IMG/VR virus record: IMGVR_UViG_2778261161_000003
Location: 1 to 15,670 of that record
Length of the DNA: 15,670 nt
From: a virus
Taxonomy: Duplodnaviria > Heunggongvirae > Uroviricota > Caudoviricetes
Direction: 5' to 3' (one strand)
Shown here: piece by piece, positions 248-15,274 of the stretch
Position numbering within the stretch: the first letter of the stretch is position 1
Layout of the letters: every line of letters starts with the position of its first letter
The notes under the pieces: model-generated
Database searches by the model: none
Seen by the model: the letters and a program-made list of their open reading frames with translations, nothing else
Told to the model about the DNA's origin: nothing
Position numbers and translations under genes: made by a program

Positions 248-329
248 GTTGCGTTCATGTCTGGAATGGGTGCGTTTCGACCGCCTTTCGCAACCGAATG
301 ACGGGGGATTGCTCCCCCGTCGCGGTTTC

Positions 330-470
330 TTACTGTTTACACTGCAAGAACGCCGCAAACTCCGCTCCCCAAAAGCTCATCCGGATTTCGCAGAGTGACC
401 CCTGCAGCATCCAGATGATGAGGATTGCCGTCACGCATAGGGTGATGGCGGTTAGCGATTTTTGCGACAT
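330..470 (-). CDS. Hok/Gef-family type I toxin, 46 aa
   Basis: Minus-strand translation MSQKSLTAITLCVTAILIIWMLQGSLCEIRMSFWGAEFAAFLQCKQ. One N-terminal hydrophobic helix, conserved SLCEIR motif and C-terminal E-x-AAFL-x-C tail, as in Hok/Gef/RelF toxins. Strong SD GGAGG (revcomp of 479-483) 8 nt upstream of ATG (470-468); stop TAA at 332-330. Confidence 0.8.
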   Translation of the reverse strand: MSQKSLTAITLCVTAILIIWMLQGSLCEIRMSFWGAEFAAFLQCKQ

Positions 471-655
471 AGCGCTTGCCTCCTTAGTGGAGAGGCGCTA
501 ACCTTCTACTTGCTAAGGTATGAAGTGTTAGGGCCTCGGGTTAACGTTACGTTGACTCGGGGCCTTCTCACATCTGGCCTTCGGGAAATCCTCCAACCAT
601 CAGTCGAAGGCACCCGCGCGTAATTTACCGTCTTTTGTTTATTCCGGCAATTCTG
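471..655 (-). promoter_or_regulatory. hok mRNA leader and promoter region; expected location of a cis-antisense Sok-like RNA on the plus strand
   Basis: Minus-strand sigma70-like promoter: -35 TTGCCG (650-645), 17-bp spacer, -10 TAAATT (627-622). This gives a transcript of about 400 nt ending at the 219-247 terminator, the usual hok mRNA size. The antisense RNA itself could not be delimited by eye. No intact mok-like overlapping ORF with a start codon upstream of hok was found. Confidence 0.35.
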
Positions 656-659
656 GCCA

Positions 660-920
660 TCAGTTCCGGGGGAGGGGTAGGTTCATCTGACTGCAACCTC
701 TGTGCGAAGCTGGCAGGTCATGCCAGGGGATGCCCTCCGAAGAGTGAACGCCAGAGGCGTGTTTCGATGTGAATTTATGGAAAGCTTCCAGTGTTGAGAA
801 GCATACGCCGCATTCCAGGTTGTTACACTGGTAATATTTTTGCCGCACGGTATTCGAATCATTTTCCGGGCGACTGGTGCGGATACGGGCAGATGCGCCA
901 CAAAGCGGACAACGGAACAT
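660..920 (-). CDS. ogr: Ogr/Delta-family zinc-finger late-gene transcription activator
   Basis: MFRCPLCGASARIRTSR...QCNNLECGVCF matches the P2 Ogr C-x2-C...C-x4-C zinc-finger layout and N-terminal MFxCPLC signature. SD GGGAGG 5 nt upstream of ATG (920-918). The ORF is 86 aa against 72 aa for P2 Ogr. Confidence 0.85.
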   Translation of the reverse strand: MFRCPLCGASARIRTSRPENDSNTVRQKYYQCNNLECGVCFSTLEAFHKFTSKHASGVHSSEGIPWHDLPASHRGCSQMNLPLPRN

Positions 921-1164
921 AGCGACCTCCCTTTGCGTGGTGCTGCCGCTATTTTAAGTTGTACTAGCTCAGACTCCAACCGACAGTTTGCGTAGCCAGA
1001 ACGCAATCAAACCTGGCAATCCGCTTTGAACTCGCAGCGACAAGCGTGCGTTCTCACATAAATGAAGATTATTGGCTTTTTACCATATGTGGGAGTGGTG
1101 CTTTTGTTAGTAAAAGGTGATGATAGGTTTTTTCCTATGCACACCCATTGGTTAGTCAAGAGAA

Positions 1165-3132
1165 ATGACAGAATTTGAGATAAATAGCCCACTACTTCAT
1201 CTCGCTTTGCTTGAAACACTGAAGCGTGACGACATTCATGATGAGATAGATTTGTTTCTTCCGTTTATTGCTGTAACAGCCTCCGAAATTGGCAAGCCTG
1301 TTATTAATGAAAATGATATACAGGATAAACTTCAGCAAAACTTCGGGTTCAAGCCGCCACTGGCAGCAGTGAAGGTATTGATGACGCGAGCCAAGAAAAG
1401 AGGCCTTCTAATCCGTGAAAATTTCGCCTTTATTCCAGTGCACGAAAAAATAACTGAATGGAAAAATGGATTTGAGCATAAAAAAGAAGATGTAGAAACA
1501 TCTCTTGCAAGTCTCAAGCGTGAATTTATCATTTTTACAGAAGTCAACTTTGGTAAAAAACTATCTGATTCTGAAGCTGAAAAGTTAATTATCGGATTTA
1601 TTGAGGTTAACGTTAGTAGTGTGATAAGTCATAGGGCTTATCATCGAATGGAACAAGCAGAACGTATTAAAAATACTAATCATGTTATTGCATCTTTTAT
1701 TAGTCATATTCACCGAAACCAACCAAGAATTTTAGAAGATTTCAGTCGATGTGTAAAAGGTATGTTACTGGCTAACTATCTCTTTTATGCAGATAAGGCC
1801 ACAGATAAAAAATCTTATAAGGGAATAACAGTTTACCTTGACTCTCCTATAGTCATTGGCATGCTTGGATATAGTGGACGCCAAGCAAAAGAGGCATATA
1901 CAGATTTTTTAAATCTTCTAAAATCACTAAGTATTGAGATAGTCATATTTGACCGTACACTTAATGAAATTGAAGGTTTACTATATGCATGGAAAAATGA
2001 TATTTCGAAGAAACGTTATGACCGTTTCAATACGAAGACACTTGAGTGGTTAAGGGCGCAAGGTTATGATGCTGAGCGTATTGATACTGACCTTAAGCTA
2101 CTTGAAAGTAATATCAATAAGCTTGATATCAATATTAAACTTGGTTTTACTCCGAAAACAAAGTTTCAATGCGATGAAGCTAAACTCCAGAGTGCTATTG
2201 GTCGGGCTTTTCACAGAGACAAAAATCTTGAGCACGATACTATTTGCATTTCCCGCATACATAATATGCGGGAAGGTAGAGTGATCAATAATCTTAGCCA
2301 GTCTTTTAGTGTTTTTGTTACGCCTAATACTAGCCTCGTCAAGGAAGCTAATGATTTTTTCCGTCATGATACTAAGCGCCAAGCTATTCCAGTCGTCGTT
2401 TCTGAACAGTGGATGACGGCTATGTTCTGGCTAAAAAAGCCAGATATTTATGCTCAACTACCTCAAGAGCAGCTTCTTTCAACGGCCTACAGTTTATTGT
2501 ACACCGACGATCGATTCTGGGAAGCTTTCATAAATCGTCTCGAAAATCTTGAAAAACGAGGAGATATTACTCAGGATGAGTTTCTTCAGATCCGCTGGGA
2601 TAGTGATCTTCTTCGGCTTGTGCATGATGTATCTGTCGATGTGGGAGAGGATTTTTCCGAGGAAGATGTTTTTGACGTGGTTAACACAATCAAGCGAAGG
2701 CATGAGGAAAAACATCAGAGTGATATGGCAGAGCTAGAAGACCGTGGCCGACAGGAACTAGAGAGTTTGCGTCAAAAAACATCCACACAACTTCAGACGA
2801 TTAATCTGGAAAAACAAGCTGCGCAGGCAAGAATTGAATCTTTAGAGCGAAAAATACGCAAGGGTAGTGCCTTTCTAGCTGGCGCTTTAGCTTGGTTTTT
2901 TAGTGGATTGCTGGTCTTTTCTCTTTGTCTGGCTGCTGTCAAAGGAATTCCCGATGAAATGCAGCCCGCTATGTTTAGAAGTGACTTATTCAGAGGAAAT
3001 CTGGTAGGTGTTAGCATAATTGTTACTTCATTATTTGGAGTGCTCAGTAGTGTTACAGGAATTGATTTAGCCATTTGTCATAAATTCATAAAATCACGTA
3101 TTGAAAAATGGTTTTTTTCATTATTTAGTTGA
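1165..3132 (+). CDS. Hypothetical 655-aa protein: large soluble N-terminal region, coiled coil, two C-terminal transmembrane helices; AT-rich cargo gene
   Basis: Long uninterrupted ORF in a visibly AT-rich segment. Heptad-like charged region at about aa 520-570 (ELEDRGRQELESLRQ...IESLERKIRK), then hydrophobic helices AFLAGALAWFFSGLLVFSLCLAAV and LVGVSIIVTSLFGVLSSVTGIDLAI. No Walker A or other catalytic motif recognised. Start ATG 1165 has only a weak SD. Confidence 0.7.
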   Translation: MTEFEINSPLLHLALLETLKRDDIHDEIDLFLPFIAVTASEIGKPVINENDIQDKLQQNFGFKPPLAAVKVLMTRAKKRGLLIRENFAFIPVHEKITEWKNGFEHKKEDVETSLASLKREFIIFTEVNFGKKLSDSEAEKLIIGFIEVNVSSVISHRAYHRMEQAERIKNTNHVIASFISHIHRNQPRILEDFSRCVKGMLLANYLFYADKATDKKSYKGITVYLDSPIVIGMLGYSGRQAKEAYTDFLNLLKSLSIEIVIFDRTLNEIEGLLYAWKNDISKKRYDRFNTKTLEWLRAQGYDAERIDTDLKLLESNINKLDINIKLGFTPKTKFQCDEAKLQSAIGRAFHRDKNLEHDTICISRIHNMREGRVINNLSQSFSVFVTPNTSLVKEANDFFRHDTKRQAIPVVVSEQWMTAMFWLKKPDIYAQLPQEQLLSTAYSLLYTDDRFWEAFINRLENLEKRGDITQDEFLQIRWDSDLLRLVHDVSVDVGEDFSEEDVFDVVNTIKRRHEEKHQSDMAELEDRGRQELESLRQKTSTQLQTINLEKQAAQARIESLERKIRKGSAFLAGALAWFFSGLLVFSLCLAAVKGIPDEMQPAMFRSDLFRGNLVGVSIIVTSLFGVLSSVTGIDLAICHKFIKSRIEKWFFSLFS

Positions 3133-3144
3133 CTTTTACTAAAG

Positions 3145-3180
3145 GAGAAATGCGGTTAATAATTTTGAACCGCATTTCTC
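3145..3180. repeat. Perfect 13-bp inverted repeat forming a stem-loop just after the 655-aa ORF
   Basis: GAGAAATGCGGTT (3145-3157), 10-nt loop, AACCGCATTTCTC (3168-3180). No U-tract on either strand, so it is not a canonical intrinsic terminator. Confidence 0.45.
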
Positions 3181-3314
3181 TGGGCTGTTATCTGATATAA
3201 TTAGTATCCATATCTAGTACAGATGAGGCTGTTAGAAGTGTCAAAACAACCTACGGTGGATAGAATTGACTGTGTGTCCAACGTTGAGAGGGATAATGTA
3301 ATAAAGCATTATCA

Positions 3315-3680
3315 GTGCACAATAGACATCTAGGGGGAACCTTGGCTAAGGTGACCAGAATTCAGGCCGGGCAATATGCAGTAGATGATGGGCGTTTCAT
3401 CGTAAAAAATAGCTCAGGATGGCTCGTTGTTGATGTTAATGGCACCCATGATTTTGGGCCTGTTCCAACGCTAGCAGCAGCGAAACAATATGTTGAGTCT
3501 GGCGCGGTTCCGTTAGGGCAACATAATTTGTCTACAGTACATGGCCGCAGACAAAGCAAAAAAGAGTTTAATGCATATCTGGCATCTGAAGCTAAGAATG
3601 GTAATCCAATGCCAGCTATTCTTTGGATCATTGTTCTTTGTATCATCGGTGGTGTTGTCTTGGCTGTGAGAGGTTATTAG
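3315..3680 (+). CDS. Hypothetical small protein (about 109-121 aa) with a C-terminal transmembrane anchor
   Basis: ORF ends in hydrophobic segment AILWIIVLCIIGGVVLAVRGY. Start ambiguous: ATG 3315 or in-frame GTG 3351 downstream of AGGGGGAA. Same strand as the 655-aa gene. Confidence 0.45.
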   Translation: MHNRHLGGTLAKVTRIQAGQYAVDDGRFIVKNSSGWLVVDVNGTHDFGPVPTLAAAKQYVESGAVPLGQHNLSTVHGRRQSKKEFNAYLASEAKNGNPMPAILWIIVLCIIGGVVLAVRGY

Positions 3681-3830
3681 CTTTGGATAGATTAGCTGAT
3701 TTTCTACTCACGGATTGATGCGGATAGCTATTATCTATGTCCGCTTTCTAGCGCAGAGCGGATTGTCAGATTAGGTGGACCTGTGCCGTAAACGTGTCAG
3801 CTTTGGTCTGAGCTAATGCATCCAAGTTGT

Positions 3831-4940
3831 TCACTCTGTTTCTGCTATCCATTCAGGGATTTTTGTCTCAAGCTCAAGCCGCGTGGTAAACCCACTGTCA
3901 TCAATGGTGTGCTCGGCTTTTGCAATAATCCAGTTCTGTTTATCAATGTCGCTTTTGAATCCTGTCACCGTGCCATGCATTTCGGGGTAGAGTTCTGCGC
4001 GTCCACGCGCCAGCGTGATGGAAAAAGATGCGGCCCCGCGTTGTAGCTGCTGCCACTTTGCCGCCGCTGCGCGTCTTGCTGCCTGTTCATTCTGGTAGGT
4101 TTTGCGTAACACAAATACGTTGCCTTCCGCTCCTTCCATATAATCGCCTTCGCGGCTGCTGCTTTGCTCCTTTTTCGGTTTTGGCGGTTTGCGGCGTTTC
4201 ACGCTGACTTTTTTCTTTTTCCCGTAGTTAAGATCAAGCCAGTAGGCGCGTACACCCGTATACGCCTCGCGGTCAGCAATTCGGAACTGATGGCGATCGC
4301 CGCTGCTGCGTGTGATGGTGAACGATGGCAGCGGCTGGCCCTGTGCGTTCACGCCACCGCCTGGCATGATGAATAACAGATTTCCGCTTTTTACCGTGGT
4401 GATTGCGCCCAGCATTTCCGCCATGCGCGTAAGGAAGGACATGTCGCTTTCTTCGGTCTGGTCGGCGTGGTCGATTTCGATATCCATCAGCATTTCGCTG
4501 ATTTGTGGTTTCAGGCCGTACCGGTGAGCAATGGCAGACACCACGCGCTCAACGGTCACATCATGCCAGGACACTTCACGCTTAACGTTAAATTCATCCC
4601 GAAAATCTGCGCTTCTGGCTGAAACAGTCAGCGTGTCCGGTGGCCCTTCGTGAGCGATTTCATCAACAATGTAAGTGCCTTTTTCGGTCAGTGGTTCTCC
4701 TTTCCAGCCAATGAGAACCGTCAGGTGAGCGCCCCGTGGCGGTAGCTGCAACTGGCCATCGGCATCATCCAGCGTGATGGTTAGCTGGTCAGCTTCAAAT
4801 CCTCTGTTGTCGGTCAGCGACAGACTCATCAGGCGCTCTGCCACGCCGGACAGCGCTTTACCTTCCGCAAGAATATCAAAATCCGGCATTTTCACGGGGT
4901 CTGCGCGCTGACTGAGTAATTGCATGGTGGTATCGGTCAT
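3831..4940 (-). CDS. D: Phage tail protein D (P2 late control gene D family)
   Basis: Translation from MTDTTMQLLSQRADPVKMPDFDILAEGKALSG onward has the overall layout of P2 gpD-family tail proteins, including the lysine-rich linker KKKKVSVKRRKPPKPKK. Start chosen at ATG 4940-4938 because of SD GGGAGG 6 nt upstream; the track ORF extends to 5072 but that N-terminal extension lacks an SD. Confidence 0.85.
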   Translation of the reverse strand: MTDTTMQLLSQRADPVKMPDFDILAEGKALSGVAERLMSLSLTDNRGFEADQLTITLDDADGQLQLPPRGAHLTVLIGWKGEPLTEKGTYIVDEIAHEGPPDTLTVSARSADFRDEFNVKREVSWHDVTVERVVSAIAHRYGLKPQISEMLMDIEIDHADQTEESDMSFLTRMAEMLGAITTVKSGNLLFIMPGGGVNAQGQPLPSFTITRSSGDRHQFRIADREAYTGVRAYWLDLNYGKKKKVSVKRRKPPKPKKEQSSSREGDYMEGAEGNVFVLRKTYQNEQAARRAAAAKWQQLQRGAASFSITLARGRAELYPEMHGTVTGFKSDIDKQNWIIAKAEHTIDDSGFTTRLELETKIPEWIAETE

Positions 4941-5097
4941 CTGCTCCCTCCCTGCGTGGCATAGTCGCATGTGCGTGCGGCGGGGGTTACTGCTTTTTGT
5001 TGTCGTCGGGCGGGGAGAACAGCGCAAGAGTGAGATTGTGCGCGTGGTGGGTGATGATTGTTGCCGAATCATTTAACGGATACAAGGGGCTGAAGCT

Positions 5098-6282
5098 ATG
5101 AGTGAAACTCGTTTTCATGGTGCCCGTGTTACGGAAAGTACCGACCTGGTAACAGCGATTAATGACGTTGATTCCAGTGTTATTGGTATCGTGGCAACGG
5201 CGGATGATGCGGACGCAAAGCAGTTCCCGCTGAACAAGCCCACGTTGCTGACCCGCGTCAATGACGTGCTGGGAAAATGCGGGACTACGGGGACGCTTTA
5301 TCGTGCGCTTAAGGCCATCGCAGACCAGGTGAGCACAAAAGTGATCGTCGTTCGCGTGGCTGAACACAAAGAAGAAGACGGTAAGACGCAGGATCAACTG
5401 GTTATCGGTGGTTCTGAATCTGACGGCAGCTATACAGGGATGTATGCGCTGCTTGTTGCAGAGCAGGATGAAAGTATCGGATACCGTCCGCGTATTCTGG
5501 CTGCGCCGGAGCTGGACACGGAGGCGGTAACAAAATCCCTGTGCGTGATTGCAGGTAAACTGCGCGCGTTTGTGTATGCCTCATGTCACGGCTGTAACAC
5601 GATGGCTGAGGCGATTACCTACCGCCAGAAATTCAACGAACGTGAGGTGATGCTCTTATGGCCGGACTTCATCGCCTACAACCCGAAAAGTGGCAAAAAC
5701 GAAACGTTCCCCGCGCCTGCCTATGCGTGCGGCCTTCGTGCGTACATTGACCATGAGCAGGGCTGGCACAAATCACTGTCCAACGTTCCGGTTAAAAATG
5801 TGCTGGGGATGTCGAGGCATGTGTTCTGGTCGTTGCAGGCCGAAGACAGTGATGCCAACAGCCTCAACAACAAAGAAATCACGACCATTATTCGTCGCAA
5901 CGGGTTCCGCTTCTGGGGCAACCGCACACCGGAAACGAACGCCTACATCTTTGAGGTGTATACCCGAACCGCACAGGTGCTGGCTGATTCAATTGCGGAA
6001 GCGCAGTTTGAAACCATCGACAGTCCACTGACGCCTGCGAACGTGAAGGATGTTATCAGTGCCATCAGGGCAAAACTGGATTCACTGGTTACTGCCGGGA
6101 AACTGATTGGCGCGGAGTGCTGGTATGACGTGGTGGATAACAGCACCACGGATTTACGTCAGGGGCGTGTGCGTATTCGCTACAAATATACGCCTGTTCC
6201 GCCACTGGAAGACATGGAGCTTTACCAGACGTTTACTGATGAATACTTTGAACCTGCATTTGCGGTGCTGGGAGGTGCCTGA
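5098..6282 (+). CDS. FI: Contractile tail sheath protein (P2 FI-like)
   Basis: 394 aa, collinear with P2 FI (e.g. WPDF, EQGWHK.LSNV, RRNGFRFWGNRT, YKYTPVPPLE). SD AAGGGG 8 nt upstream of ATG 5098. Confidence 0.9.
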   Translation: MSETRFHGARVTESTDLVTAINDVDSSVIGIVATADDADAKQFPLNKPTLLTRVNDVLGKCGTTGTLYRALKAIADQVSTKVIVVRVAEHKEEDGKTQDQLVIGGSESDGSYTGMYALLVAEQDESIGYRPRILAAPELDTEAVTKSLCVIAGKLRAFVYASCHGCNTMAEAITYRQKFNEREVMLLWPDFIAYNPKSGKNETFPAPAYACGLRAYIDHEQGWHKSLSNVPVKNVLGMSRHVFWSLQAEDSDANSLNNKEITTIIRRNGFRFWGNRTPETNAYIFEVYTRTAQVLADSIAEAQFETIDSPLTPANVKDVISAIRAKLDSLVTAGKLIGAECWYDVVDNSTTDLRQGRVRIRYKYTPVPPLEDMELYQTFTDEYFEPAFAVLGGA

Positions 6283-6794
6283 TGGCTGTGCCAAAACATC
6301 TTCGCTTTTTCACGCTGTTTGTGGATGGTGAAAACGAAGTGGGGAAGGTGACGTCCGTCACTCTGCCTAAACTGACGCGTAAAATAGACAGCTATCGTGG
6401 TGGTGGCATGATGGGGGCGGTGAGTATCGATCTCGGTCTGGATGATTCGGCTCTTGATGCGAGCTTTGTCATGGGCGGCGCGGTTCGTGAACTGTTCCTT
6501 AAGTATGGCGGCACGATTGACGGCACGCTGCTGCGCTTTGCAGGTGAATACTACACCGATGCAGAAAGCGACCTGTATGAAGTCGAAATGCGCGGACGTG
6601 TGACGGAAATTGATATGGGGGAAGCCAAACAGGGCGAAGCCACATCACACACTTACGCCATTAAAAACACCTACTACAAGCTGAGTGTTAACGATCGCCC
6701 GTTGTGGGAGATTGACCTGCTGAACTTCATTTACCGGAAGGACGGCAAGGACATTGTGCCCGATCGCATCCGTTCCGCGCTCGGGCTTGGCTGA
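6282..6794 (+). CDS. FII: Tail tube protein (P2 FII-like)
   Basis: 170 aa; MAVPKHLRFFTLFVDGENEVGKVTSVTLPKLTRKIDSYRGGGM matches the P2 FII N-terminus pattern. ATG overlaps the FI stop (TGATG), SD GGGAGGTG upstream. Confidence 0.9.
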   Translation: MAVPKHLRFFTLFVDGENEVGKVTSVTLPKLTRKIDSYRGGGMMGAVSIDLGLDDSALDASFVMGGAVRELFLKYGGTIDGTLLRFAGEYYTDAESDLYEVEMRGRVTEIDMGEAKQGEATSHTYAIKNTYYKLSVNDRPLWEIDLLNFIYRKDGKDIVPDRIRSALGLG

Positions 6795-6849
6795 TAAGTA
6801 ATATGCAGGCGGCGCAGTGCGTTGCCTCTGACTGAAAAGGAGACAACTG

Positions 6850-7224
6850 ATGAAAGACATCGATACTGAAACCCGGAATAACACCGTAGCGGATGATGTG
6901 ACGGCAGGTGAGGATATGGCTGTCGAACGTGGTGTAAAACTTTCCCGGCCAATTGAGCGTGGTGCCGAAAAAATCACATATGTGGAAATCACCGGGGCTA
7001 TTGAGCAGGCGGGATCCCTGCGTGGTCTGTCGCTGTCTGATGTGCTGAATCTGAAAGCGGATACCATGTTCACGCTGTTGCCTCGCGTGACCTCGCCACG
7101 ACTGGATGAAGTGATGATTAAAAAAATGTCGTCACGCGATTTTATTCAGTTGTGCGCTGTGGCTGTAAATTTTATGAGCGAGCCAGACTCTGGCGCGAAG
7201 AGCGTGCAGGAGACGGCAGCGTAA
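6850..7224 (+). CDS. E: Tail assembly chaperone E (zero-frame product)
   Basis: 124-aa ORF between the tube and tape-measure genes, the conserved position of gpE in P2-like tails; SD AAAGGAGA upstream of ATG 6850. Confidence 0.8.
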   Translation: MKDIDTETRNNTVADDVTAGEDMAVERGVKLSRPIERGAEKITYVEITGAIEQAGSLRGLSLSDVLNLKADTMFTLLPRVTSPRLDEVMIKKMSSRDFIQLCAVAVNFMSEPDSGAKSVQETAA

Positions 7225-7388
7225 TCACCCTGGTGTGCTTTGAGCACATCGAAGATCTGGTGGCGGATATTGCCGCCATTTTTAACTGGTCGCCCGCCGA
7301 AATCTTCATGATGACGCCCGGCGAAGTGGTTAGCTGGCGTGAGCGGGCGGCACTTCGCAGCGGGAATGCAGACAATGAAGACTCTTGA
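6850..7388 (+). CDS. E': E+E' fusion predicted from a programmed -1 translational frameshift
   Basis: The -1 frame relative to E is open from 7122 to TGA 7386-7388, overlapping the 3' end of E and running up to the tape-measure start. Same logic as P2 E/E' and lambda G/GT. The exact shift site is inferred. Confidence 0.55.
7167..7173 (+). promoter_or_regulatory. Candidate -1 slippery heptamer A AAT TTT
   Basis: Fits X XXY YYZ in the E zero frame (codons AAT 7168-7170, TTT 7171-7173), inside the E/E' overlap. An A7 run at 7120-7126 is an alternative but re-pairs less well. Confidence 0.4.
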
Positions 7389-10182
7389 TATCCGGGTCGC
7401 TTTCAGCGCCGTTGACAGGCTGACCCGGCCTGCCGAAAACGCCCTCCGCCTGATGGGGCAGTTTGGTGACTCCATCCAGCGAACGCAGGGGGCGATCAAA
7501 AATCTCGAGCGTCAGGCGCGATCATTCGAGCGCGCCCGCGACGCTGTCAGTAAAGCGGATGCGGGCATCGTGAAAGCACGACGCCAGCTTAACGCCCTTA
7601 ATCAGTTACAACGCACGGGTACAGTGCTCAGCGAAAAACAACAAAAGCTGATGCAGCAGTTAAGCACCCGGCTTGAACGCCTGAATGAATCGCGCACACG
7701 GGAAATTCAGAAAATGCGGGAGCTTGGCGGAGAGCTGAAACGCCACGGCATTTCCCTGACAGGCAGCGATAACACCATCCAGCAGGCCATCAGACGCACC
7801 GAACAGTACAACAACCAGCTTGAACGCGAACGGCAGGCGCTTGCGCGTGTAACGCGGGCGCGTGAGCGGTATTCGCGCGCGCAGGAAACCGCGGGAAAAC
7901 TGAAAACAGGTGGTGCACTGGCAACAGGTGCGGCAGCGGCGGGCGGCTATGCTGCCGGGCGTTTTTTGCAGCCCGCGATTGGGTTCGGGAAAGAGATGTC
8001 CCGCGTTCAGGCTCTGACGCGAATCGACAAAAACAGCCCGCAGTTTAAGGCGCTGCGTGAGCAGACGTTAAAACTTGGCTCTGAAACGCAGTTCACTGCA
8101 GGCGATGCCGCCAGTGGGCAGGCATTTCTTGCAATGGCTGGCTTCACACCGCAGGCCATTCAGGCTGCGCTTCCCGGCGTGCTGAGCATGGCAACGGCTG
8201 GCGGTATGGATCTCGGCGAGACGGCGGATATTGGCTCAAATATCCTGACGCAGTTCGGCCTTTCTGCTGACCAGATGGACCGGGTCGGTGACACACTCAC
8301 CGCAGCGTTTACCCGTACCAACACTGACCTTCGCGCACTGGGCGAAACCATGAAATATGCAGGTCCGGTAGCGGGTAAGCTGGGAATATCGCTGGAGCAG
8401 GCCGCAGCGATGGCTGGCGTGTTGGCGAATATGGGTATCAGAGGGAGTGATGCTGGGACGGCAATGCGTGCCAGCCTGGCTCGTCTGGCATCACCGCCAA
8501 AGGCGGCAGCAGAGGCGCTGAAAGAGCTTGGTGTGGCTGTTTCTGACGCGAACGGCAAAATGCGCCCGATGGAGGATGTGCTGGCCGACCTTTATAAAGC
8601 CACCCGCAAATACGGGGAAGTTGACCGGGTATCGTTCTTTAAGGACATTGCCGGAGAAGAGGCTTTCACATCATTTATGGCCCTCGTTGATGCGGCAGGT
8701 GACGGCTCCCTGCCCAAACTGAGAAAAGAACTTGAAGGCGCGCGCGGTGAGGCTGAACGCACGGCAAAGGTTATGGCCAACAACCTTGACGGCGATCTGA
8801 AATCACTCAGCAGTGCATGGGAAGGGTTGCGCATCCGCATTGCAGATCTGATTGACGGTCCGCTGCGTTCTGTTACGCAGTGGCTCACGCGAGTGGTCTC
8901 AAAGGTGACGGCGCTGGCGCAGGCCCATCCCGCACTGACGCGCCAGCTACTGATAGCAGGCGGTGCGTTGCTGGCAATGACTGCAACGGTTGGCTCGTTG
9001 TCGCTGGCTATTGGTGTGCTTGCTGGCCCGCTGGCAAAACTGCGTCTTGGTTTTTCTCTCCTGACCGGATCAATGAATGCTGTCAGGGTCCTGCCAGCAC
9101 TATGGGGAATGGTGACGGGTTCCGTTTCTTTACTGGGAGGCGCTATCGGGGCGTTGTTCAGTCCGGTTGGTCTTATCGTGGCTGCGCTTGCCGGAGCTGC
9201 CGTTCTTATCTGGAAATACTGGGATCCCATCAGGGCATTTTTTGCCGGGGTGTTCAGCGGGATTATGGAAAGGCTGACCCCGTTGCGCGAAACCTTTGAA
9301 CGGTTTGGTCCTGTTTTTGACGCAATCGGAAGCGGGATCAGCCAGGTGTTTAACTGGTTTAAATCGCTGCTGTCACCGATGGAGTCCAGCAAGGAAACGC
9401 TGGATAAATGTACCAGTGCTGGCGAGATATTCGGTAACGTTCTTGGCGGTGCGTTACAACTTGTTCTGACACCTGCAAAAATGCTACTGGATACGCTGGC
9501 GTGGATACTTGAAAAACTTGGCGTCCTTCCGGATGAAGCGGAAAGGGCGCGCAAGAAAATCGAAGACGCACAGCGTGCGGCCATTCTTCAGGACAAGGTT
9601 GCCTTGCTTCAGGGGGACCTGGCGAAAATCAATCCGCCGAAGCCTGTGGAAAATGGCAATGGCACCGGAGGTGATAAACCCAAAGACAACAAACCGCTCA
9701 CAGACAGCAATACCGGGACGCTACGCAGACTCAGCAAAATTGCTGATAACACAGGTAAGCTGGTTGATGAGACGAAAAAACGCATTGGCCCCGGCGATAT
9801 TGTCTTTAAGAACCTGCCCCGAGCACTTGCTGTTCGTGGGGAGTGGCAGGAGCGGAAGATTGCGCAGGTCAGTAAGCCTGCCCCCGCAATTAATATCACA
9901 CCTGTGGTTCCGGCTCCGCTGCCTCCGGCGCTGGTCCCTGTTGTTGCGGCCAGCTCCCGCCCGGTGGCAGAGGCCATACGATCGCCAGTGGCATCAGTTC
10001 CTGCAACTTCCCGTAACCGGGAGCCTGTTGCCTCCGGATTTGGCGGTGAAATTCATGTTCATCTGCATAACGTTGTTACGCAGAATCCCCGCGAACTGGC
10101 GAAACTGGTCGGTGAAATGGTCAGGGCAGAAATGGAACGGCGCGCCCGTGCCGGGCGTGGAAGTTTTTACGATAAAGATTGA
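7375..10182 (+). CDS. T: Tail tape measure protein (P2 gpT-like)
   Basis: About 935 aa, alpha-helical N-terminal region, Gly/Ala-rich hydrophobic central segment, Pro-rich C-terminal region; position after E/E'. Start set at ATG 7375 (GGGAA 8 nt upstream); in-frame alternatives at 7366 and 7339. Confidence 0.88.
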   Translation: MKTLDIRVAFSAVDRLTRPAENALRLMGQFGDSIQRTQGAIKNLERQARSFERARDAVSKADAGIVKARRQLNALNQLQRTGTVLSEKQQKLMQQLSTRLERLNESRTREIQKMRELGGELKRHGISLTGSDNTIQQAIRRTEQYNNQLERERQALARVTRARERYSRAQETAGKLKTGGALATGAAAAGGYAAGRFLQPAIGFGKEMSRVQALTRIDKNSPQFKALREQTLKLGSETQFTAGDAASGQAFLAMAGFTPQAIQAALPGVLSMATAGGMDLGETADIGSNILTQFGLSADQMDRVGDTLTAAFTRTNTDLRALGETMKYAGPVAGKLGISLEQAAAMAGVLANMGIRGSDAGTAMRASLARLASPPKAAAEALKELGVAVSDANGKMRPMEDVLADLYKATRKYGEVDRVSFFKDIAGEEAFTSFMALVDAAGDGSLPKLRKELEGARGEAERTAKVMANNLDGDLKSLSSAWEGLRIRIADLIDGPLRSVTQWLTRVVSKVTALAQAHPALTRQLLIAGGALLAMTATVGSLSLAIGVLAGPLAKLRLGFSLLTGSMNAVRVLPALWGMVTGSVSLLGGAIGALFSPVGLIVAALAGAAVLIWKYWDPIRAFFAGVFSGIMERLTPLRETFERFGPVFDAIGSGISQVFNWFKSLLSPMESSKETLDKCTSAGEIFGNVLGGALQLVLTPAKMLLDTLAWILEKLGVLPDEAERARKKIEDAQRAAILQDKVALLQGDLAKINPPKPVENGNGTGGDKPKDNKPLTDSNTGTLRRLSKIADNTGKLVDETKKRIGPGDIVFKNLPRALAVRGEWQERKIAQVSKPAPAINITPVVPAPLPPALVPVVAASSRPVAEAIRSPVASVPATSRNREPVASGFGGEIHVHLHNVVTQNPRELAKLVGEMVRAEMERRARAGRGSFYDKD

Positions 10183-10194
10183 GGAGTCATGGCC

Positions 10195-10683
10195 ATGATG
10201 ATGATCTACGGCATGTTTGTTTTTGAGCTGCGCACGCTGCCGCATCAGCAGTTACAGCAAAACAAAAGCTGGCGGCATGTGAAAAATGAACGCGTTAACC
10301 GTTCAGCAAGCTGGCAGTATATCGGTGCAGGTGATGATCGCATCGTGCTTTCTGGTGTGCTTTATCCTGAAATTACAGGTGGCGAAGTGTCGCTGTCGCT
10401 GCTGACCACGCAGGCGTATACAGGACGACCCTGGCCTTTGATTGATGGTGTCGGGCAGATTTACGGCATGTATGTCCTGACCGGAACGAATACGACCCGT
10501 TCCGAGTTTGATCGCTACGGTAAGGCGAAAAAGATAGAATTTTCACTGACCCTTGAACGCTGTGATGAGGATTTGCGGGAGCGCCTGCAATCCTCATCGT
10601 TCAGCGATATGCTGTCCGGCTTCAAAGATAAGGTGACATCATCTCTTAACAGCGCGGCCAGTTCAGTTAAAGGACTGTTCTGA
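10195..10683 (+). CDS. U: Tail protein U (P2 gpU-like)
   Basis: MAMMMIYGMFVFELRTLPHQQLQ, GAGDDRIVLSGVLYPEITGG and WPLIDGVGQIYGMYVLTG resemble P2 gpU. SD GAGGAG (10181-10186) is 8 nt before ATG 10195; ATG 10189 is an in-frame alternative. Confidence 0.88.
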   Translation: MMMIYGMFVFELRTLPHQQLQQNKSWRHVKNERVNRSASWQYIGAGDDRIVLSGVLYPEITGGEVSLSLLTTQAYTGRPWPLIDGVGQIYGMYVLTGTNTTRSEFDRYGKAKKIEFSLTLERCDEDLRERLQSSSFSDMLSGFKDKVTSSLNSAASSVKGLF

Positions 10684-10692
10684 TTTTACATT

Positions 10693-10737
10693 GCCGCCAA
10701 TACCCTCATATTGGGTAATGGGCGGCTTGTTGTTATA
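10693..10737. terminator. Stem-loop between convergent U and glycosyltransferase genes; probable bidirectional terminator
   Basis: GCCGCCAATACCC / GGGTAATGGGCGGC imperfect hairpin (10693-10726) followed by a T-rich run TTGTTGTTATAT. Confidence 0.5.
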
Positions 10738-10779
10738 TAATATATCGTAGGTCCTGATAAAACTGTTGAGGTTTCTACT

Positions 10780-12018
10780 TTATAAAGAATTGCTACTTTC
10801 TAATTCTGGGTTTCTGGAACTATTTTTACAACCTAAATCCGAGTGGTAATTCGGTATATCGTTTGTCAAATCTTGTTTGATAGCATTAATTAAGATCATT
10901 ATGTCGAATTTATGCATATCGTCGCCCCCTTCAGACCTTAGATGTTCGGATGTGGTGAGTTGAGTCGCTAATTTGCTGTTTGGCCCCCACACAATATTAT
11001 TTTCGAATTTTCCTTCATGCATTCTGTTATTATATATACAGTATTGTCTAATGTTTAATGCACTGGCTAAATGTACAATGGCAGTATCTACAGTTATAAC
11101 AAAATCAGCATGGCGAACCAATGCAAATGAACATCCGGCATCAGAAAATGGAGATAGAGACACATTATCCAATCCATTGTGATTAATCTGTTTTCCCATA
11201 TTAAAAACTATTGTGTGATATCCCTTAAGGTTATTAAGGTAAGCTAGTACTTTTTTTATCTGTTCATCAGATAAGGTTCTGCTATTCTGAGAGCCATAAG
11301 GGTTAAATATAACTAATTTTTTGTTTTTTTTTCTGAATTCATTTGCAACAATATTTGCTGGTTCATATATTTTGTTGTCAAAATTAAGCGCTGCAGCATA
11401 ATTATTATTTTTTATCTTTAGTAAAGATAAAACTTTTTTCATTCTTTCAGATGTGTGAATGGAACGATTATCGATTATATTTGTATCAAAAATAGTTACG
11501 GCAGGATGATTAAAACAGATAGAGTGTTTAGGTCTAAGTAAATGTAGTGTTTGCAATCTGGTTATCGCTGTGTTATCAAAATTTGAGAAGTCAACAACAA
11601 GATCTACATTCAGTTTTTTTATCTTTGCTTTTAGTTCGTTAAATTTATTTTTCTCGTAAGATATAAAGGCATCCACGCCAACAATGTCAGTAAAGAGGAA
11701 TGATACTCTTGAAGGTGCTATCACATATACCACCATACCGGATTTTTGAAGTTGTTTAATAAACCCTGAGGTAACGATGCCGTCACCAATGGCTTGCATG
11801 TGCATGAAAATGCACACTGTTTTATAACTATCCGGCTGTAATGATGTTTTCCTTCTGTATCGCATTTTTAGAAATGCCAGTCTGGCCTTCGTCTTTATCT
11901 TTTTTGTTTTAATATTTCGCTGTCTGTTAAGCTGTTTTAACGATGAAATAACATTCATAATGGTACCCTGAAATTCCAAATCACACATGTCATCCGTAAT
12001 GAGCAGGGTACTATACAA
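10780..12018 (-). CDS. GT-B-fold glycosyltransferase, family 9 (heptosyltransferase-like) with N- and C-terminal extensions; AT-rich cargo gene
   Basis: N-terminal KTVCIFMHMQAIGDGIVTSGFIKQL resembles the GT9 motif (ILIIRLSSLGDV type). C-terminal FALVRHADFVITVDTAIVHLASALNIRQYCIY resembles the GT9 nucleotide-sugar-binding motif (GNDSG.MHLAAAL type). Start uncertain: TTG 12018, ATG 11988 or ATG 11958, all with weak SD. Confidence 0.65.
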   Translation of the reverse strand: MYSTLLITDDMCDLEFQGTIMNVISSLKQLNRQRNIKTKKIKTKARLAFLKMRYRRKTSLQPDSYKTVCIFMHMQAIGDGIVTSGFIKQLQKSGMVVYVIAPSRVSFLFTDIVGVDAFISYEKNKFNELKAKIKKLNVDLVVDFSNFDNTAITRLQTLHLLRPKHSICFNHPAVTIFDTNIIDNRSIHTSERMKKVLSLLKIKNNNYAAALNFDNKIYEPANIVANEFRKKNKKLVIFNPYGSQNSRTLSDEQIKKVLAYLNNLKGYHTIVFNMGKQINHNGLDNVSLSPFSDAGCSFALVRHADFVITVDTAIVHLASALNIRQYCIYNNRMHEGKFENNIVWGPNSKLATQLTTSEHLRSEGGDDMHKFDIMILINAIKQDLTNDIPNYHSDLGCKNSSRNPELESSNSL

Positions 12019-12052
12019 AAAACTGGACTACAATGGTTTGAAATGAAAGCCT

Positions 12053-12652
12053 TTATGCTTGTTTACTCCTTGATTCCACTGGGGAAGCTGGCCACTCAAT
12101 ATCCGGTGCTCTTGATGTATCAACACGGTTCAGCAGCACTCGATACTTCTTCCATGCCACCAGTAACGATGTTTCTTCCTCTGTTGCAATATTCAAATCT
12201 ACGGCATCTTGAAGTGGCGAAATATGCTCACTGGCTACCTGCATGAGGCTGTTTTTTGTTTCTTCCGCCTCCCGTATCCGGAACACTTTTTCTGCTTCCG
12301 TATCCTTCACCCAGGCTATGCCGTTCCACTTCTGATATTCCCCTTCCGGCGACAACCAGGTGACATTTTCCGGTAACGGACCGAGTTCAGAAATAAATAA
12401 CGCGTCGCCGGAAGCCACGTCATAAACCGTTTTACCACGATGATCTTCAACGAGATGCCAGGACGCCCCATCACTGTTGAAAACAGCCACGAAGCCAGCT
12501 GGAATATCTGGCGGAGCAATATCAGTACTATTTGCAGGCAGACCTGTATGAGGTGGAATGTATGCATCACCTTCACCAATAAATTCATTGGTTCCGACCA
12601 GCAGATTATAAATTTTTATGGTCCGTGATTGTTCACTCATTCTGAATGTCAT
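12053..12652 (-). CDS. tfa: Tail fibre assembly chaperone (lambda Tfa / P2 gpG family)
   Basis: [51 protein letters not shown] and C-terminal [36 protein letters not shown] match lambdoid Tfa proteins closely. Start ATG overlaps the fibre stop (TAATG). Confidence 0.9.
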
Positions 12653-13734
12653 TATGCAAGCCTCACAATATAGTTAAATGCGATGTTTTTTACGGTGTTT
12701 TCTGCGTTCCCCGTAGCATTAACGGTGATGGTGTGTCCGTGGGGACCAATAATGACAGAATGGGCATGAGCACCAATGCCGATAGTGTGGTTATGGGCAC
12801 CGATATATACATTGTGAGCATGCCCTCCTGCGCTCGACGTGGTACCAGTACCTAACGCAGCGTTATAACCGGCTGATACACCATTCCCCGCGCCAGTGTG
12901 ACCAACAGGTATATTGTGTGAATGAGCTCCTGCGCTATTTGTGGTTTTTGTGCCGTAATCAAATGAACTGGTCGTTTTAGTACCGTAATCAAACGACGAT
13001 GTGGTTTTCGTCCCCAAATCAGTACTGGATGCGCTGGCGCTGTGGGTGTGCGATTTAATGCCGTCCTGTTCCTGAGACAATACGGCACGACCACTGGCAG
13101 GTTTGCCCTTGATAGTCCAGCCACGCATATCAGGGATCACGCCTGACGGATAAGCGACTGCAAGTTTCGGGTATGCAGATTTGTCAAAAGTCTGCCCCTG
13201 CATCAGGGCATAACCAGACGGAACGGTATCTGATGGCCACGGAATCGGTGCACCGACTGGATAAAACTCTTCAGGAGGATGAGCCGAGGTGTAAAGCTGC
13301 GCCCACGGCGACCAGTTTGCGTCGGTCGTATCCCGTCGTGAACGAATAAATGCCGGAGCATGAGCACCGCTTATACCACTCCAGCCGATGAGTAATTCGC
13401 CTTCGCCAACGGCTGTCATCCCTTTCAGGTGAATGATATTTCCATACGCTGTTGGATATCCGTTGTTATACGCCTCGTATAACTCCAGACCTGTGGCCCC
13501 CTGCATATTATCTGTCAGGGCGGTCAGCCGACCTTTTGAAGCCAGATTAACTGACGATACTGCTGTCCCATCTGACGGTAACGCCCCGATCTCTGATGCT
13601 GTTGGCTTATTCCTGGAGTTATAGTCCCTTCGCCAGCCAGGAGCATAAGCATCACCATGATTAATATAAGTAAATTGAGCATTAGGGATGCCTTCACCGC
13701 TGGATGTACTCGGTGTGGTAATGCGTATGGTCAT
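12652..13734 (-). CDS. Short tail fibre protein (360 aa) with tail-collar-like region and His-rich C-terminal tip
   Basis: [34 protein letters not shown]...IPDMRGW resembles the phage tail-collar domain. Followed by [10 protein letters not shown] tandem repeats and GAHxH/GHxH repeats typical of fibre tips. Much shorter than P2 gpH (669 aa). Confidence 0.8.
12936..13025 (-). repeat. Intragenic tandem repeat, about 3 x 30 bp, in the tail fibre gene
   Basis: CCGTAATCAAA recurs at 12953-12963 and 12983-12993 with a degenerate third copy at about 13012-13022; encodes [10 protein letters not shown] / [10 protein letters not shown] / [10 protein letters not shown]. Confidence 0.6.
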
Positions 13735-13835
13735 TGCGCCGCGGGTGCCAATAACCCATGCTCATCGCGGTAGGGATAGAACGCTGCTAAACGCTCAAAG
13801 TCTGCCTGTTCGTGTGTGTTCAGGACTTTTGCCAT
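13731..13835 (-). CDS. 34-aa ORF translationally coupled to the tail fibre gene; possible remnant of an early (cox-position) gene
   Basis: [34 protein letters not shown]; its TGA overlaps the fibre ATG (ATGA at 13734-13731). Sits where cox lies in P2, divergent from C. No convincing homology recognised. Confidence 0.3.
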
Positions 13836-13875
13836 GTGTGATAACCTGCGCTATCTGTGGTTGTTTGTGACTTGG

Positions 13876-13893
13876 TGTACTTATAAGTACACC
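13876..13893. promoter_or_regulatory. Operator candidate O1: perfect 18-bp palindrome GTGTACTTATAAGTACAC
   Basis: Perfect dyad in the short divergent region between the 34-aa ORF and C. Confidence 0.5.
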
Positions 13894-13908
13894 TTGTGCG
13901 CAAGCTTA

Positions 13909-13926
13909 GTGTACTTATAGGAACAC
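13909..13926. promoter_or_regulatory. Operator candidate O2: GTGTACTTATAGGAACAC (16/18 identical to O1)
   Basis: Second copy 33 bp centre-to-centre from O1, overlapping the C ribosome-binding site (AGGAA). Confidence 0.45.
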
Positions 13927-13931
13927 TGTCA

Positions 13932-14240
13932 ATGCTTATCGGTGAAAAAATTAGAGTGATTCGTGAATCAGAGGATTTAACGCGCGAAGAATTTTGCGGC
14001 CTGATTGATGTGCCTATCGGCACTTTGCGTCGTTATGAAACGGGGCGGATTGAAAACATAGGGGGCGAAGTGCTTATCAAGATTGTTAATCACCCTCGCT
14101 TTTTTAAGTACATGAATTGGCTTATGACGGGAAAAACAAATGAGGCTGCTGGGCAGATCAGTCCGTCTCTCTCCCCTGATGGGCCAAAAAGCACATCGCC
14201 TTCTCAAAAACCCCGCAAGACTGGCACACAGCCCGGCTAA
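13932..14240 (+). CDS. C: P2 C-type immunity repressor
   Basis: About 102 aa; N-terminal HTH (GEKIRVIRESEDLTREEFCGLIDVPIGTLRRYETG) and C-terminal FFKYMNWLMTGK...GQISPSL parallel P2 C (FTKYTLWFMTNQ...GQIAPAL). Start ATG 13932 with SD AGGAA 8 nt upstream; located immediately upstream of int. Confidence 0.85.
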   Translation: MLIGEKIRVIRESEDLTREEFCGLIDVPIGTLRRYETGRIENIGGEVLIKIVNHPRFFKYMNWLMTGKTNEAAGQISPSLSPDGPKSTSPSQKPRKTGTQPG

Positions 14241-14289
14241 TCATGGAGCGCTGGGGGCATGGTGGTCTTGTAACGCTGGGGTTTCACGA

Positions 14290-15264
14290 ATGAGCATAAA
14301 ATCAATTCCGGGAGGGTATCTTCTTGACATGCGCCCGGAGGGGCGTAAAGGCAAACGCATTCGTAAAAAATTTAAAACGAAATCGGATGCAGTTTTATAT
14401 GAGCGGTGGGTGCTGGCGCAACAGCATAACAATGAGTGGAAAGGAAACTCCATTGATCGCCGTCCGCTGTCAGTGCTTATTGACTTGTGGTGGAAATACC
14501 ACGGCCAGCTAATGAAGTCAGGGCATAACACGCGCCTTAAATTGCTGCGCTTGAGTGAGGCAATGGATGACCCGTGCGTGCATAAACTTAATACAACGAT
14601 GCTCACCGAGCTACGTGTGTCCAGGATAGAGCAGGGGATACAGCCCAGCACCATAAATCGAGAGATTGGGGCGTTAAGCGCGATGTTTACCGCACTCATC
14701 TCATCCGGCCATTTTCTTAACGATAACCCCGTTCAAGGCCTTAAAGGAATGAAGGTTAACGAGCGCGAAATGGGATATCTGAGTAAGTCTGAATGTGTTC
14801 AGTTGCTGGATGCACTGGCTGAAAATCCCGATGAACGGCTGGCTGTCGAAATCCTTCTGTCGACCGGGGCGCGATGGGGCGAGGTAGCGGCACTGGAGCA
14901 GCGCCGTGTTCTTCATTGTCGAATCACTTTTTCAAAAACGAAGAACAGCAAAAACCGTACCGTTCCTATTTCTGAAAGCCTGTTTGAAAAGATCAAAATA
15001 CGGGGCGGGAAACTGGTGTTTCCGACGCTGGATTATCCATTGGTTCGCGATGTCATCAAAACGGTCGCACCTGATGTTCCTGACGGCCAGGCTGTTCATG
15101 CGCTGCGCCACACCTTCGCCAGTCATTTCATGATGAACGGCGGCAATATTCTGACGCTCCAGAAAATTCTGGGGCACGCAAAGATTCAGACAACGATGAT
15201 TTATGCCCATCTTGCGCCGGATTACTTGCAGGATGCGGTGAGATTTAATCCTATTGCTGGGTAA
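14290..15264 (+). CDS. int: Tyrosine recombinase, P2 Int family
   Basis: MSIKSIPGGYLLDMRPEGRKGKRIRKKFKTKSDA N-terminus and catalytic motifs LSTGARWGEVAAL, HALRHTFASHFMMNGG, LGHAKIQTTMIYAHL are collinear with P2 integrase. Start placed at ATG 14290; the track ORF begins upstream at 14140. Confidence 0.9.
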   Translation: MSIKSIPGGYLLDMRPEGRKGKRIRKKFKTKSDAVLYERWVLAQQHNNEWKGNSIDRRPLSVLIDLWWKYHGQLMKSGHNTRLKLLRLSEAMDDPCVHKLNTTMLTELRVSRIEQGIQPSTINREIGALSAMFTALISSGHFLNDNPVQGLKGMKVNEREMGYLSKSECVQLLDALAENPDERLAVEILLSTGARWGEVAALEQRRVLHCRITFSKTKNSKNRTVPISESLFEKIKIRGGKLVFPTLDYPLVRDVIKTVAPDVPDGQAVHALRHTFASHFMMNGGNILTLQKILGHAKIQTTMIYAHLAPDYLQDAVRFNPIAG

Positions 15265-15274
15265 GGAGGATGTT

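Follow-up and report, generated by a model that had tools for sequence, protein, structure and literature searches.

The window, by which we mean the whole stretch of 15,670 nucleotides that was analysed, contains the genes and features listed in Table 1. Proteins that are hallmarks of the P2 family, namely Ogr/Delta, GPD, the sheath, the FII tube, GpE, GpU and the tape measure, are all encoded here and score above the Pfam gathering scores, with the exception of the chaperone model for E. The gene content proposed in an earlier, sequence-only reading (ogr, D, FI, FII, E/E', T, U, G, a 5'-truncated H, C and integrase) was confirmed, as Pfam assigns all of these genes, and the seven remaining tail ORFs are indeed intact and full length, with gene lengths the same as in phage P88. 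The gap of about 200 bp described between C and the fibre gene is also real, the fibre ORF starting at 13734 and C at 13932, 197 bp apart. No ORF anywhere in the window matched head, baseplate, lysis or replication genes, and the statement that the element cannot make a particle alone is correct, as the baseplate is absent. What that reading did not include are three non-structural cargo genes, which code for a 655-aa protein, a 109-aa protein and a GT9 glycosyltransferase. The 655-aa protein is composed of a winged helix, a PIN-like domain, a long helix and two C-terminal membrane helices and is a candidate defence protein, whereas family searches with the 109-aa ORF gave no match. A candidate slippery site, AAATTTT, is located at 7167-7173 in the E/E' overlap, and a motif search of the D/FI intergenic region (4941-5097) found no canonical TGT-N12-ACA box. 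An Rfam IS009 match lies inside G, at 12111-12309.

Table 1. Features of the window and the basis on which each was assigned.
Feature	Position	Strand	Basis
C-terminal fragment of phrog_14142 gene (orfR paralogue), adjoins attL	1-174	+	PHROG match 6.6e-23, profile positions 72-127; att mapping
hok/gef-family toxin gene	330-470	-	PF01848; annotated Hok/Gef in 99.9% identical genome
ogr, late-gene activator (Ogr/Delta zinc finger)	660-920	-	PF04606 5.5e-14
655-aa cargo gene, low GC, candidate defence gene, variable D-ogr slot	1165-3132	+	
109-aa cargo ORF with C-terminal hydrophobic helix	3351-3680	+	co-occurs with 655-aa gene across sibling loci
gpD (late control D / tail hub-associated), full length, 369 aa	3831-4940	-	PF05954; 93% nt identity to P88 D, frame intact
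D/FI divergent intergenic region, presumed late-promoter site	4941-5097		layout as in P88
FI tail sheath, full length	5098-6282	+	PF04984, PF22671, PF17482; dN/dS 0.03-0.15
FII tail tube, full length	6282-6794	+	PF04985 3.7e-46
E, tail assembly chaperone	6850-7224	+	PF10109 at 18 bits (Pfam gathering score 25)
E', tail assembly chaperone, overlapping -1 frame	7233-7388 (open 7152-7388)	+	PF06528 above gathering score
T tape-measure protein, 935 aa	7375-10182	+	PF10145 1e-57
U tail protein	10195-10683	+	PF06995 1.5e-38
GT9 glycosyltransferase moron (heptosyltransferase-like), low GC, G-U slot	10780-11958	-	PF01075, phrog_36326; weak RfaQ/heptosyltransferase I matches; also present in more complete prophages
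G, tail-fibre assembly chaperone	12053-12652	-	PF02413
H', 3' remainder of tail-fibre gene	12652-13751 (longest ORF 12652-13734, 360 aa)	-	Collar domain
cox' remnant	13731-13835	-	translation; called as gene 9900-10004 in source contig
Early promoter/operator region with putative C operators, an 18-bp direct repeat at 13875-13892 and 13909-13926	13875-13926		read from sequence; operator role inferred
C immunity repressor (HTH)	13932-14240	+	PF01381, PF13560; 100% identity to CB9615 C
Tyrosine integrase, full length	14290-15264	+	PF24624, PF00589; 99.7% identity to CB9615 integrase
orfR, 131 aa, between int and attR	15275-15670	+	phrog_14142 4.4e-70; att mapping

In E. coli, the prophage occupies the space between ihfA and btuC and is inserted at the terminator of ihfA. 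Direct att repeats of 25/26 bp, GGCCGCTCTGCGGCC(T)TTTTTCTTTT, were read at both ends in a 99.9% identical genome and lie outside the window, attL about 240 bp to the left and attR about 105 bp to the right. The limits first given to the element, 660-15264, are consequently too narrow, as it also takes in hok, the fragment at 1-174 and the 131-aa gene at its right end. The neighbours of the element are ihfA/pheT directly on the left and btuC/btuE/btuD directly on the right, whether one looks at the source contig, the identical sibling contigs or the 99.9% identical complete genome. This leaves virtually no chance that the prophage is complete but rearranged, with the missing modules placed contiguously just outside the window. 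As in a cryptic prophage, the phage DNA is flanked by att sites and, when set against the more complete siblings found at this site, shows an internal deletion.

The designation P2-like holds at the family level only, as the parent is a Xuanwuvirus similar to phage P88 (Peduoviridae) and not P2 proper. The type phage P88 is 95% identical in nucleotide sequence to window positions 3821-10690 (D to U), with the same orientation pattern, and 86% identical over ogr-hok; it shares the gene order, including hok at the end. D is transcribed divergently from the FI-FII-E-E'-T-U block, an arrangement that is not P2's order and is native to P88-like phages. Unlike the element, P88 is a complete inducible phage of 35.8 kb with a different C/int region, it has an invertible fibre cassette and an invertase in the G-U slot where GT9 is found here, and its D-ogr slot holds no cargo gene. 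Phage P2 encodes the same protein families and follows the same C/cox/int/ogr logic of immunity, integration and late activation, but its FI to U, D and ogr genes are co-directional, and Peduovirus records share only 60-80% DNA similarity with the tail block of the element. The prophages that E. coli O55:H7 CB9615 and SE11 (PP_SE11-4) carry between ihfA and btuC use the same attachment site with the same 25-nt duplication. The SE11 prophage has been described as a P2-like prophage of 35.8 kb between btuC and ihfA with such a duplication (PMC2608844). The near-complete CB9615 prophage matches window positions 13752-15670 (C, int and orfR) at 99.5%. In contrast to the element, both prophages are about 35 kb long with all modules present; their tail blocks are only 93% identical to that of the element and the fibre and cargo modules differ.

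Comparison with more complete prophages allowed the deletion to be mapped as one event, which joins codon 28 of the 92-codon cox-like gene to codon ~344 of the 710-codon H gene. In alignments with the H parent (sibling locus L028) and the cox parent (CB9615), H homology ends at 13755 and cox homology starts at 13752, so that the junction, 13752-13755, is TAAC, a 4-bp microhomology common to both parental genes. H' lacks codons 1-343, and its alignment to the full 710-aa H of the siblings stops at 13755. The first 28 codons of cox survive and then run out of frame into H', giving an ORF of 34 codons, whose stop overlaps the ATG of H' (ATGA). Positions 3273-28256 of the CB9615 prophage have no similarity to any DNA in the window. 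We propose that a single illegitimate-recombination event at the TAAC microhomology fused the cox-like gene to H and would have taken out about 22 kb, comprising the rest of cox, the 5' half of H, the packaging region and the genes for early functions, replication, partition, head, lysis, tail completion and baseplate. Two prophage ends would then have been left over, C-int-orfR on one side and H'-G-GT9, U-T-E'-E-FII-FI, D, the cargo genes, ogr and hok on the other.

The junction was found in none of 5426 complete E. coli genomes, and the exact H' protein in a single contig, seen in 2 samples. The exact C protein occurs in 9824 blocks, and thousands of prophages whose early region is normal have an identical C. 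Three siblings at the same site (L026, L028 and L034) differ from window positions 1-13755 by only 1-7 SNPs and retain the full 710-aa H and the baseplate, lysis and L genes, the loci compared reaching as far as gene L. A fourth, L032, shows 0 SNPs over the same interval, yet carries a different deletion. Siblings that have retained the genes for fibre, baseplate, lysis and head completion encode an identical T protein. Of the 24 longest contigs encoding it, 10 look full length, 3 have the deletion described here and 11 have other deletions. At least five other, differing deletions were seen in near-identical siblings. Neither the tail block nor the cargo is protected: in L035 most of the tail operon (FII' to U) has gone while the cargo gene was kept, and GT9 carries a frameshift in some siblings. 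Other siblings lack C and int. With the T protein as anchor, which forces T to be present, all variants keep the hok to G block; L035, the exception, comes from a cargo-anchored sample. In two pairs of deletions the right endpoints lie no more than 5 bp apart, a recurrence that simple random decay does not predict.

The sequence-only reading had left the choice between a very recent deletion and retention under selection. The siblings 0-7 SNPs away, the absence of the junction from complete genomes and the other deletions on the same DNA strongly support a deletion that is recent and one of many, while retention finds no support. With siblings this close the intactness of the tail ORFs is explained: they would be intact because the deletion is very young and not because of selection. 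The dN/dS values of the retained tail genes, which that reading had wished to see, are low (0.01-0.17), but they reflect the past of these genes in functional phages. The window is very probably the interior of a defective Xuanwuvirus prophage that has suffered a very recent deletion and whose tail is not domesticated; the prophage itself is an ordinary member of the P2 family, very recently crippled. The comparison reveals a snapshot of very recent prophage decay, and the lineage forms a small natural series, in which more complete siblings and six or more deletion states occur on near-identical DNA and which could serve to study the mode and rate of P2-family prophage inactivation.

A rather unlikely alternative is that the tail block persists by hitch-hiking between genes that are useful or hard to lose, i.e. 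the hok addiction module, the cargo in the D-ogr slot, GT9 and the C immunity gene, so that only precise deletions remove the tail. The tail operon is in fact bracketed by low-GC cargo genes and hok, and the D-ogr slot is variable, siblings holding GmrSD-like and other defence-type genes there. The uncharacterised gene in this slot of the window, with the winged helix, PIN-like domain and membrane helices, is a candidate for anti-phage activity. Conserved defence genes have also been described in P2-like prophages that are defective (PMC13586616). However, frameshifted GT9 copies and losses of C and int occur among the siblings, the L035 deletion entered the tail operon while the cargo was kept, and at this age a selective explanation is unnecessary.

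Even more doubtful is the idea that retention and decay are not neutral, with a lineage repeatedly grounded by deletions that preferentially start at codon 28 of cox or codon ~161 of int and a surviving Ogr-dependent tail block that, together with the cargo, then acts on incoming relatives. If this were true, an infecting P2-like phage would, through late activation, trigger the expression of mismatched sheath, tube, tape-measure and D proteins and thereby hamper its own assembly; alternatively, the tail block would be a recombination reservoir producing hybrid phages.

That the sheath, tube and tape-measure set is kept by selection as a domesticated module, either as a tailocin-like weapon or for another host function, is not supported and seems highly improbable to us. 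All seven tail ORFs are full length, and the P88-type D/FI junction is found in 1358 E. coli genomes whereas the matching baseplate block is found in 1035, an excess of at least ~320. In addition, the Sp13/CP-933T-type prophage of E. coli O157:H7, also a P88-type remnant, keeps FI to U and the fibre chaperone gene without head, lysis or baseplate genes. Sp13 differs from the element, as it is integrated beside a tRNA-Leu gene, keeps the early, replication and partition region, has IS elements at its breakpoints and carries a frameshifted T, the last of which speaks against a selected tail. Tailocins are conserved at a fixed locus, where they have regulators of their own and retain baseplate, spike, complete fibres and a lysis cassette. 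R-type tailocins such as the P2-related R-pyocins resemble the element in lacking a capsid while having sheath, tube, tape measure, U and D of the P2 family, but the element has none of those other properties: homologues of V, W, J and I, for the baseplate and spike, are missing from the window and the flanks, there is no holin or endolysin, and the fibre is without its N-terminal half. The element is therefore not a tailocin. Neither is the architecture conserved, given a junction seen in no complete genome and siblings with many deletions, one of them removing the tail operon, and the 0-7 SNPs that separate it from more complete siblings account for the intact ORFs. Our result is in this respect mainly negative, in that finding tail ORFs intact where head and baseplate genes are absent is not in itself evidence of domestication.

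Equally unsupported, and just as improbable, is a piggy-backing element that is mobilised in the manner of a satellite by a co-resident or infecting P2-like helper. It has in its favour that int and the two att sites are kept, as is ogr, which is homologous to the delta activator of satellite P4, and that, as reported for O157 Sakai, its defective Sp13 can be induced and, with help, excised and packaged (PMC2669165). Sp13, however, retains its early and replication region, which this element does not. Although int is intact, the cox-like gene breaks off at codon 28 of its 92, so that no excision directionality factor is encoded, and no replicon of its own, be it a primase/helicase or an A protein with an origin, was found in the window. 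The cos site of P2-like phages is located in the region beside the portal gene; this region is part of the deleted interval, and the window contains nothing similar. Without a replicon, a packaging region and an intact cox, the element could not excise, replicate or be packaged like a satellite. As to a co-resident helper, a search for the D/FI junction in the 99.9% identical complete genome found no second copy. As a recently crippled prophage, the element would presumably stay in place, since Int without Cox would not excise it, and its tail operon would be silent unless a related infecting phage supplied late activation. C would probably still confer immunity to homo-immune phages, and an infecting relative could recombine with the remnant.

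The window is E. coli DNA and matches contig NTPM01000003.1 (GCA_002463805.1) at 100%. In this source contig, in identical sibling contigs and in the 99.9% identical complete genome MEI7BO1-21, pheST-ihfA lies directly to the left and btuCED directly to the right. The element is bounded on both sides by a 25/26-bp direct repeat that overlaps the ihfA terminator, GGCCGCTCTGCGGCC(T)TTTTTCTTTT, with copies ~240 bp left of position 1 and ~105 bp right of position 15670. This agrees with SE11, where a P2-like prophage of 35.8 kb lies between btuC and ihfA and a duplication of 25 nt has been reported (PMC2608844). Because flanking genes and att repeats adjoin both ends, the window is the interior of a single att-bounded element of ~16 kb, which excludes the scenario that the missing modules lie just outside it. 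In P2, D is not divergent from FI to U, unlike in the window. However, an inversion of FI to U was dropped as an explanation, as the divergent layout is native to P88-like phages and is shared, at 95% nucleotide identity, by P88 and other Xuanwuvirus records. At ihfA-btuC, the O55:H7 strain CB9615 likewise has a prophage of this type, 35 kb long and near-complete. Window positions 13752-15670 match it at 99.5%, a stretch that runs from orfR (a gene beside int) through int, C and the intergenic region between C and cox into the first 84 nt of a 92-codon cox-like gene. Public assemblies contain many prophages in which the glycosyltransferase gene GT9 separates G from U and which have a 710-aa H together with the full set of baseplate, lysis and head genes. 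We conclude that the window is an ordinary cryptic prophage, with a known phage genus, a known attachment site and a known decay state.

The gene content listed in the sequence-only reading was borne out by an ORF listing and Pfam scans of the window, in which no ORF resembled a head, terminase, portal, lysis, baseplate or replication gene.

Features of the prophage remnant, in window coordinates
Feature	Position	Strand	Remarks
Gene fragment	1-174		57 codons; C-terminal part of an orfR paralogue (phrog_14142 family); adjoins attL
hok/gef	330-470	minus	
ogr	660-920	minus	
655-aa gene	1165-3132		low GC
109-aa gene	3351-3680		
gpD	3831-4940	minus	
FI	5098-6282	plus	sheath
FII	6282-6794	plus	tube
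E	6850-7224	plus	overlapping E' frame runs to 7388
T	7375-10182	plus	tape measure
U	10195-10683	plus	
GT9	10780-11958	minus	glycosyltransferase; low GC
G	12053-12652	minus	fibre chaperone
H' ORF	12652-13734	minus	fibre fragment, 360 codons; Collar domain
C	13932-14240	plus	HTH repressor
int	14290-15264	plus	tyrosine integrase
orfR	15275-15670	plus	131 aa; phrog_14142; between int and attR

The GC content falls to 30-40% exactly across the 655-aa gene and GT9, as is typical for acquired cargo. At 7152-7224, E' overlaps E in the -1 frame, and the heptamer AAATTTT at 7167-7173 is a candidate slippery site; the remnant thus seems to have kept a chaperone frameshift arrangement of the P2 type. A search for Ogr boxes (TGT-N12-ACA) gave three matches where chance alone would give 3.9. 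None of the three lies between D and FI, so that this region is a presumed late promoter. In an Rfam scan the sole match was a full-length IS009 (187 bits) inside G at 12111-12309 (minus strand), and no Sok-like RNA scored above threshold. The short D of ~266 aa in many genomes was rejected as a sign of decay: in L029, one of the fetched sibling prophage loci (handles beginning with L), the DNA is 100% identical to the window but is gene-called differently, with 266 aa for D and 284 aa for H', and the difference therefore lies in start-codon choice. The labels 'truncated D / VgrG-Pvc8 family' in many RefSeq genomes have the same origin.

Comparison with the parental genes placed the deletion junction precisely. 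Homology to the cox-like gene starts at 13752 and homology to full-length H stops at 13755, with four bases, TAAC, common to both parental sequences, so that cox is linked at codon 28 to H at codon ~344. The deletion is estimated at about 22 kb in P88 or CB9615 coordinates. It removed the rest of cox, the early genes, replication gene A, parM-type partition genes and the packaging region, followed by Q-P-O-N-M-L, X, lysis, R-S, V-W-J-I and the 5' half of H. A search for cos with an approximate P2 sequence as query gave no match even in more complete relatives. The deletion created a 34-codon ORF, cox' (13731-13835, minus strand), which continues out of frame for six codons into H', the 3' remainder of H. 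The cox' stop codon and the start codon of the H' ORF overlap (ATGA), and the two ORFs may be translationally coupled. Due to this fusion, the early promoter, if derepressed, would transcribe cox'-H'-G-GT9, an arrangement that looks like an accident of the junction. Between cox' and C, two 18-bp direct repeats (13875-13892 and 13909-13926) are plausible as the putative C operators that had been supposed from the sequence.

How old is the deletion? We found the exact T protein of the window in 140 index blocks and sampled the 24 longest contigs that encode it; in every one the prophage sits at ihfA-btuC and shares the 655-aa cargo gene. Ten of them are more complete, with the full 710-aa H and I, J, W, V, S, R, lysis, X and L within the fetched 22.8 kb, while three have exactly the deletion of the window and 11 have other deletions. 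Against window positions 1-13755, one SNP was counted in L028, five in L026 and seven in L034, all of them among the more complete siblings; L032 has none, but carries a different, scrambled deletion. The junction is found in 0 of the 5426 complete E. coli genomes of a curated set, and the exact H' protein in a single contig, seen in two samples. The proposal of a very recent deletion is thus upheld by the 0-7 SNPs to these siblings, and the youth of the deletion fully explains the intact tail ORFs. The alternative, retention under selection, had been coupled to a dN/dS test. The tail genes gave values of 0.01-0.17 against relatives, but these say nothing on selection after the deletion, because they reflect evolution inside working phages, and with 0-7 substitutions between window and siblings dN/dS has no power for the time since. 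Nor does the remnant have the defining features of a domesticated tail module, as baseplate, spike, the N-terminal half of the fibre and lysis genes are missing. The features of a piggy-backing element are likewise lacking, as cox is truncated and all replication and packaging DNA is lost.

Nearly identical siblings carry various other deletions, one of which enters the tail block. MEI7BO1-21 and L031 additionally lack window positions 12794-13751, and L020, L030 and L033 lack 13132-14774, which removes C and half of int; some of this group also have a 1-bp frameshift in GT9, and such an indel lies near 11331 in some sibling remnants (L030, L040). In L027 there are several internal deletions. 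In L035, found by a search anchored on the cargo protein rather than on T, everything from mid-FII through U and beyond is lost while cox, C and int are kept, so that the tail operon, too, can be lost. Prophages are reportedly inactivated rapidly and then eroded more slowly, the established picture attributed to Bobay et al. in 2014.

Among these near-identical siblings, the right endpoints of different deletions agree within ≤5 bp in two pairs. One endpoint, at cox codon 28 (window 13752), is shared by the window and MEI7BO1-21 (with loci L001/L031 at this endpoint), the other, at int codon ~161 (~14775), by the L020/L030/L033 group and L032. Within each pair the members carry different C-int alleles, and all four combinations of the marker at 11332 with the right-end allele were found; prophage copies therefore recombine. 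The shared endpoints may be deletion hotspots, or second deletions may tend to start at an existing junction (nested deletions, with later allele exchange). Nothing among IS elements, repeats or Chi sites was found to account for them. Chi (GCTGGTGG) is absent from both strands of the 15.7-kb window and was ruled out, and on reading the junction sequences, IS-mediated adjacent deletion and invertase or IS200/605-type target sites were either not present or not convincing.

Similar remnants are widespread. The P88-type D/FI junction occurs in 1358 of the 5426 complete genomes, but the matching baseplate block in 1035, and remnants with a tail operon and no baseplate are therefore common. One of these is Sp13 of E. 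coli O157:H7, described as a defective P2-like prophage without most morphogenetic genes (PMC2669165). A recent survey covers P2-like prophages that are defective but retain cargo or defence genes, as well as hotspots within tail genes and between int and att (PMC13586616). E. coli B has a historical defective P2-like prophage, P2 Hy dis, to which the remnant might conceivably correspond.

What might the remnant still do? Thousands of prophages whose early region is normal have a repressor identical to C. In the remnant, int and both att sites are intact, whereas cox is truncated and replication and packaging DNA are gone. By analogy with P2, C would confer immunity to homo-immune Xuanwuvirus phages, and the element would be unable to leave the chromosome, as excision by Int requires Cox. 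The tail operon would be silent unless an infecting relative provided replication-coupled late activation via Ogr, and the remnant could donate sequence to such relatives by recombination. It would neither form a contractile particle, for want of baseplate, spike and fibre N-terminal half, nor release one, for want of lysis genes. Hok may add a stabilising addiction effect. The heptosyltransferase-like GT9 is a moron in the slot between G and U, which in P88 is taken by an invertase and an invertible fibre cassette; GT9 may modify the LPS core, i.e. act in lysogenic conversion.

The slot between D and ogr is variable, with GmrSD-like, DUF87-ATPase, ComF-like or unknown genes in siblings and the 655-aa protein in the window. 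The exact 655-aa protein occurs in 228 index blocks. It had no match in Pfam, PADLOC, PHROG or NCBIfam, and Foldseek by itself returned nothing significant. Acidic residues that are invariant in the alignment, among them D226, E268 and D358, may make up the active site of a PIN-like domain. Homologues with 36-87% identity are scattered over Gammaproteobacteria, one in Aeromonas inside a type I R-M operon and one in Pseudomonas beside integrases. The 655-aa gene is a reasonable candidate for a defence gene. At the other side of ogr, the fragment next to attL is a diverged relic of the orfR family. Some strains have a further full orfR copy between ihfA and the prophage (L028, 1863-2258), which hints at earlier rounds of integration and excision at the ihfA site.
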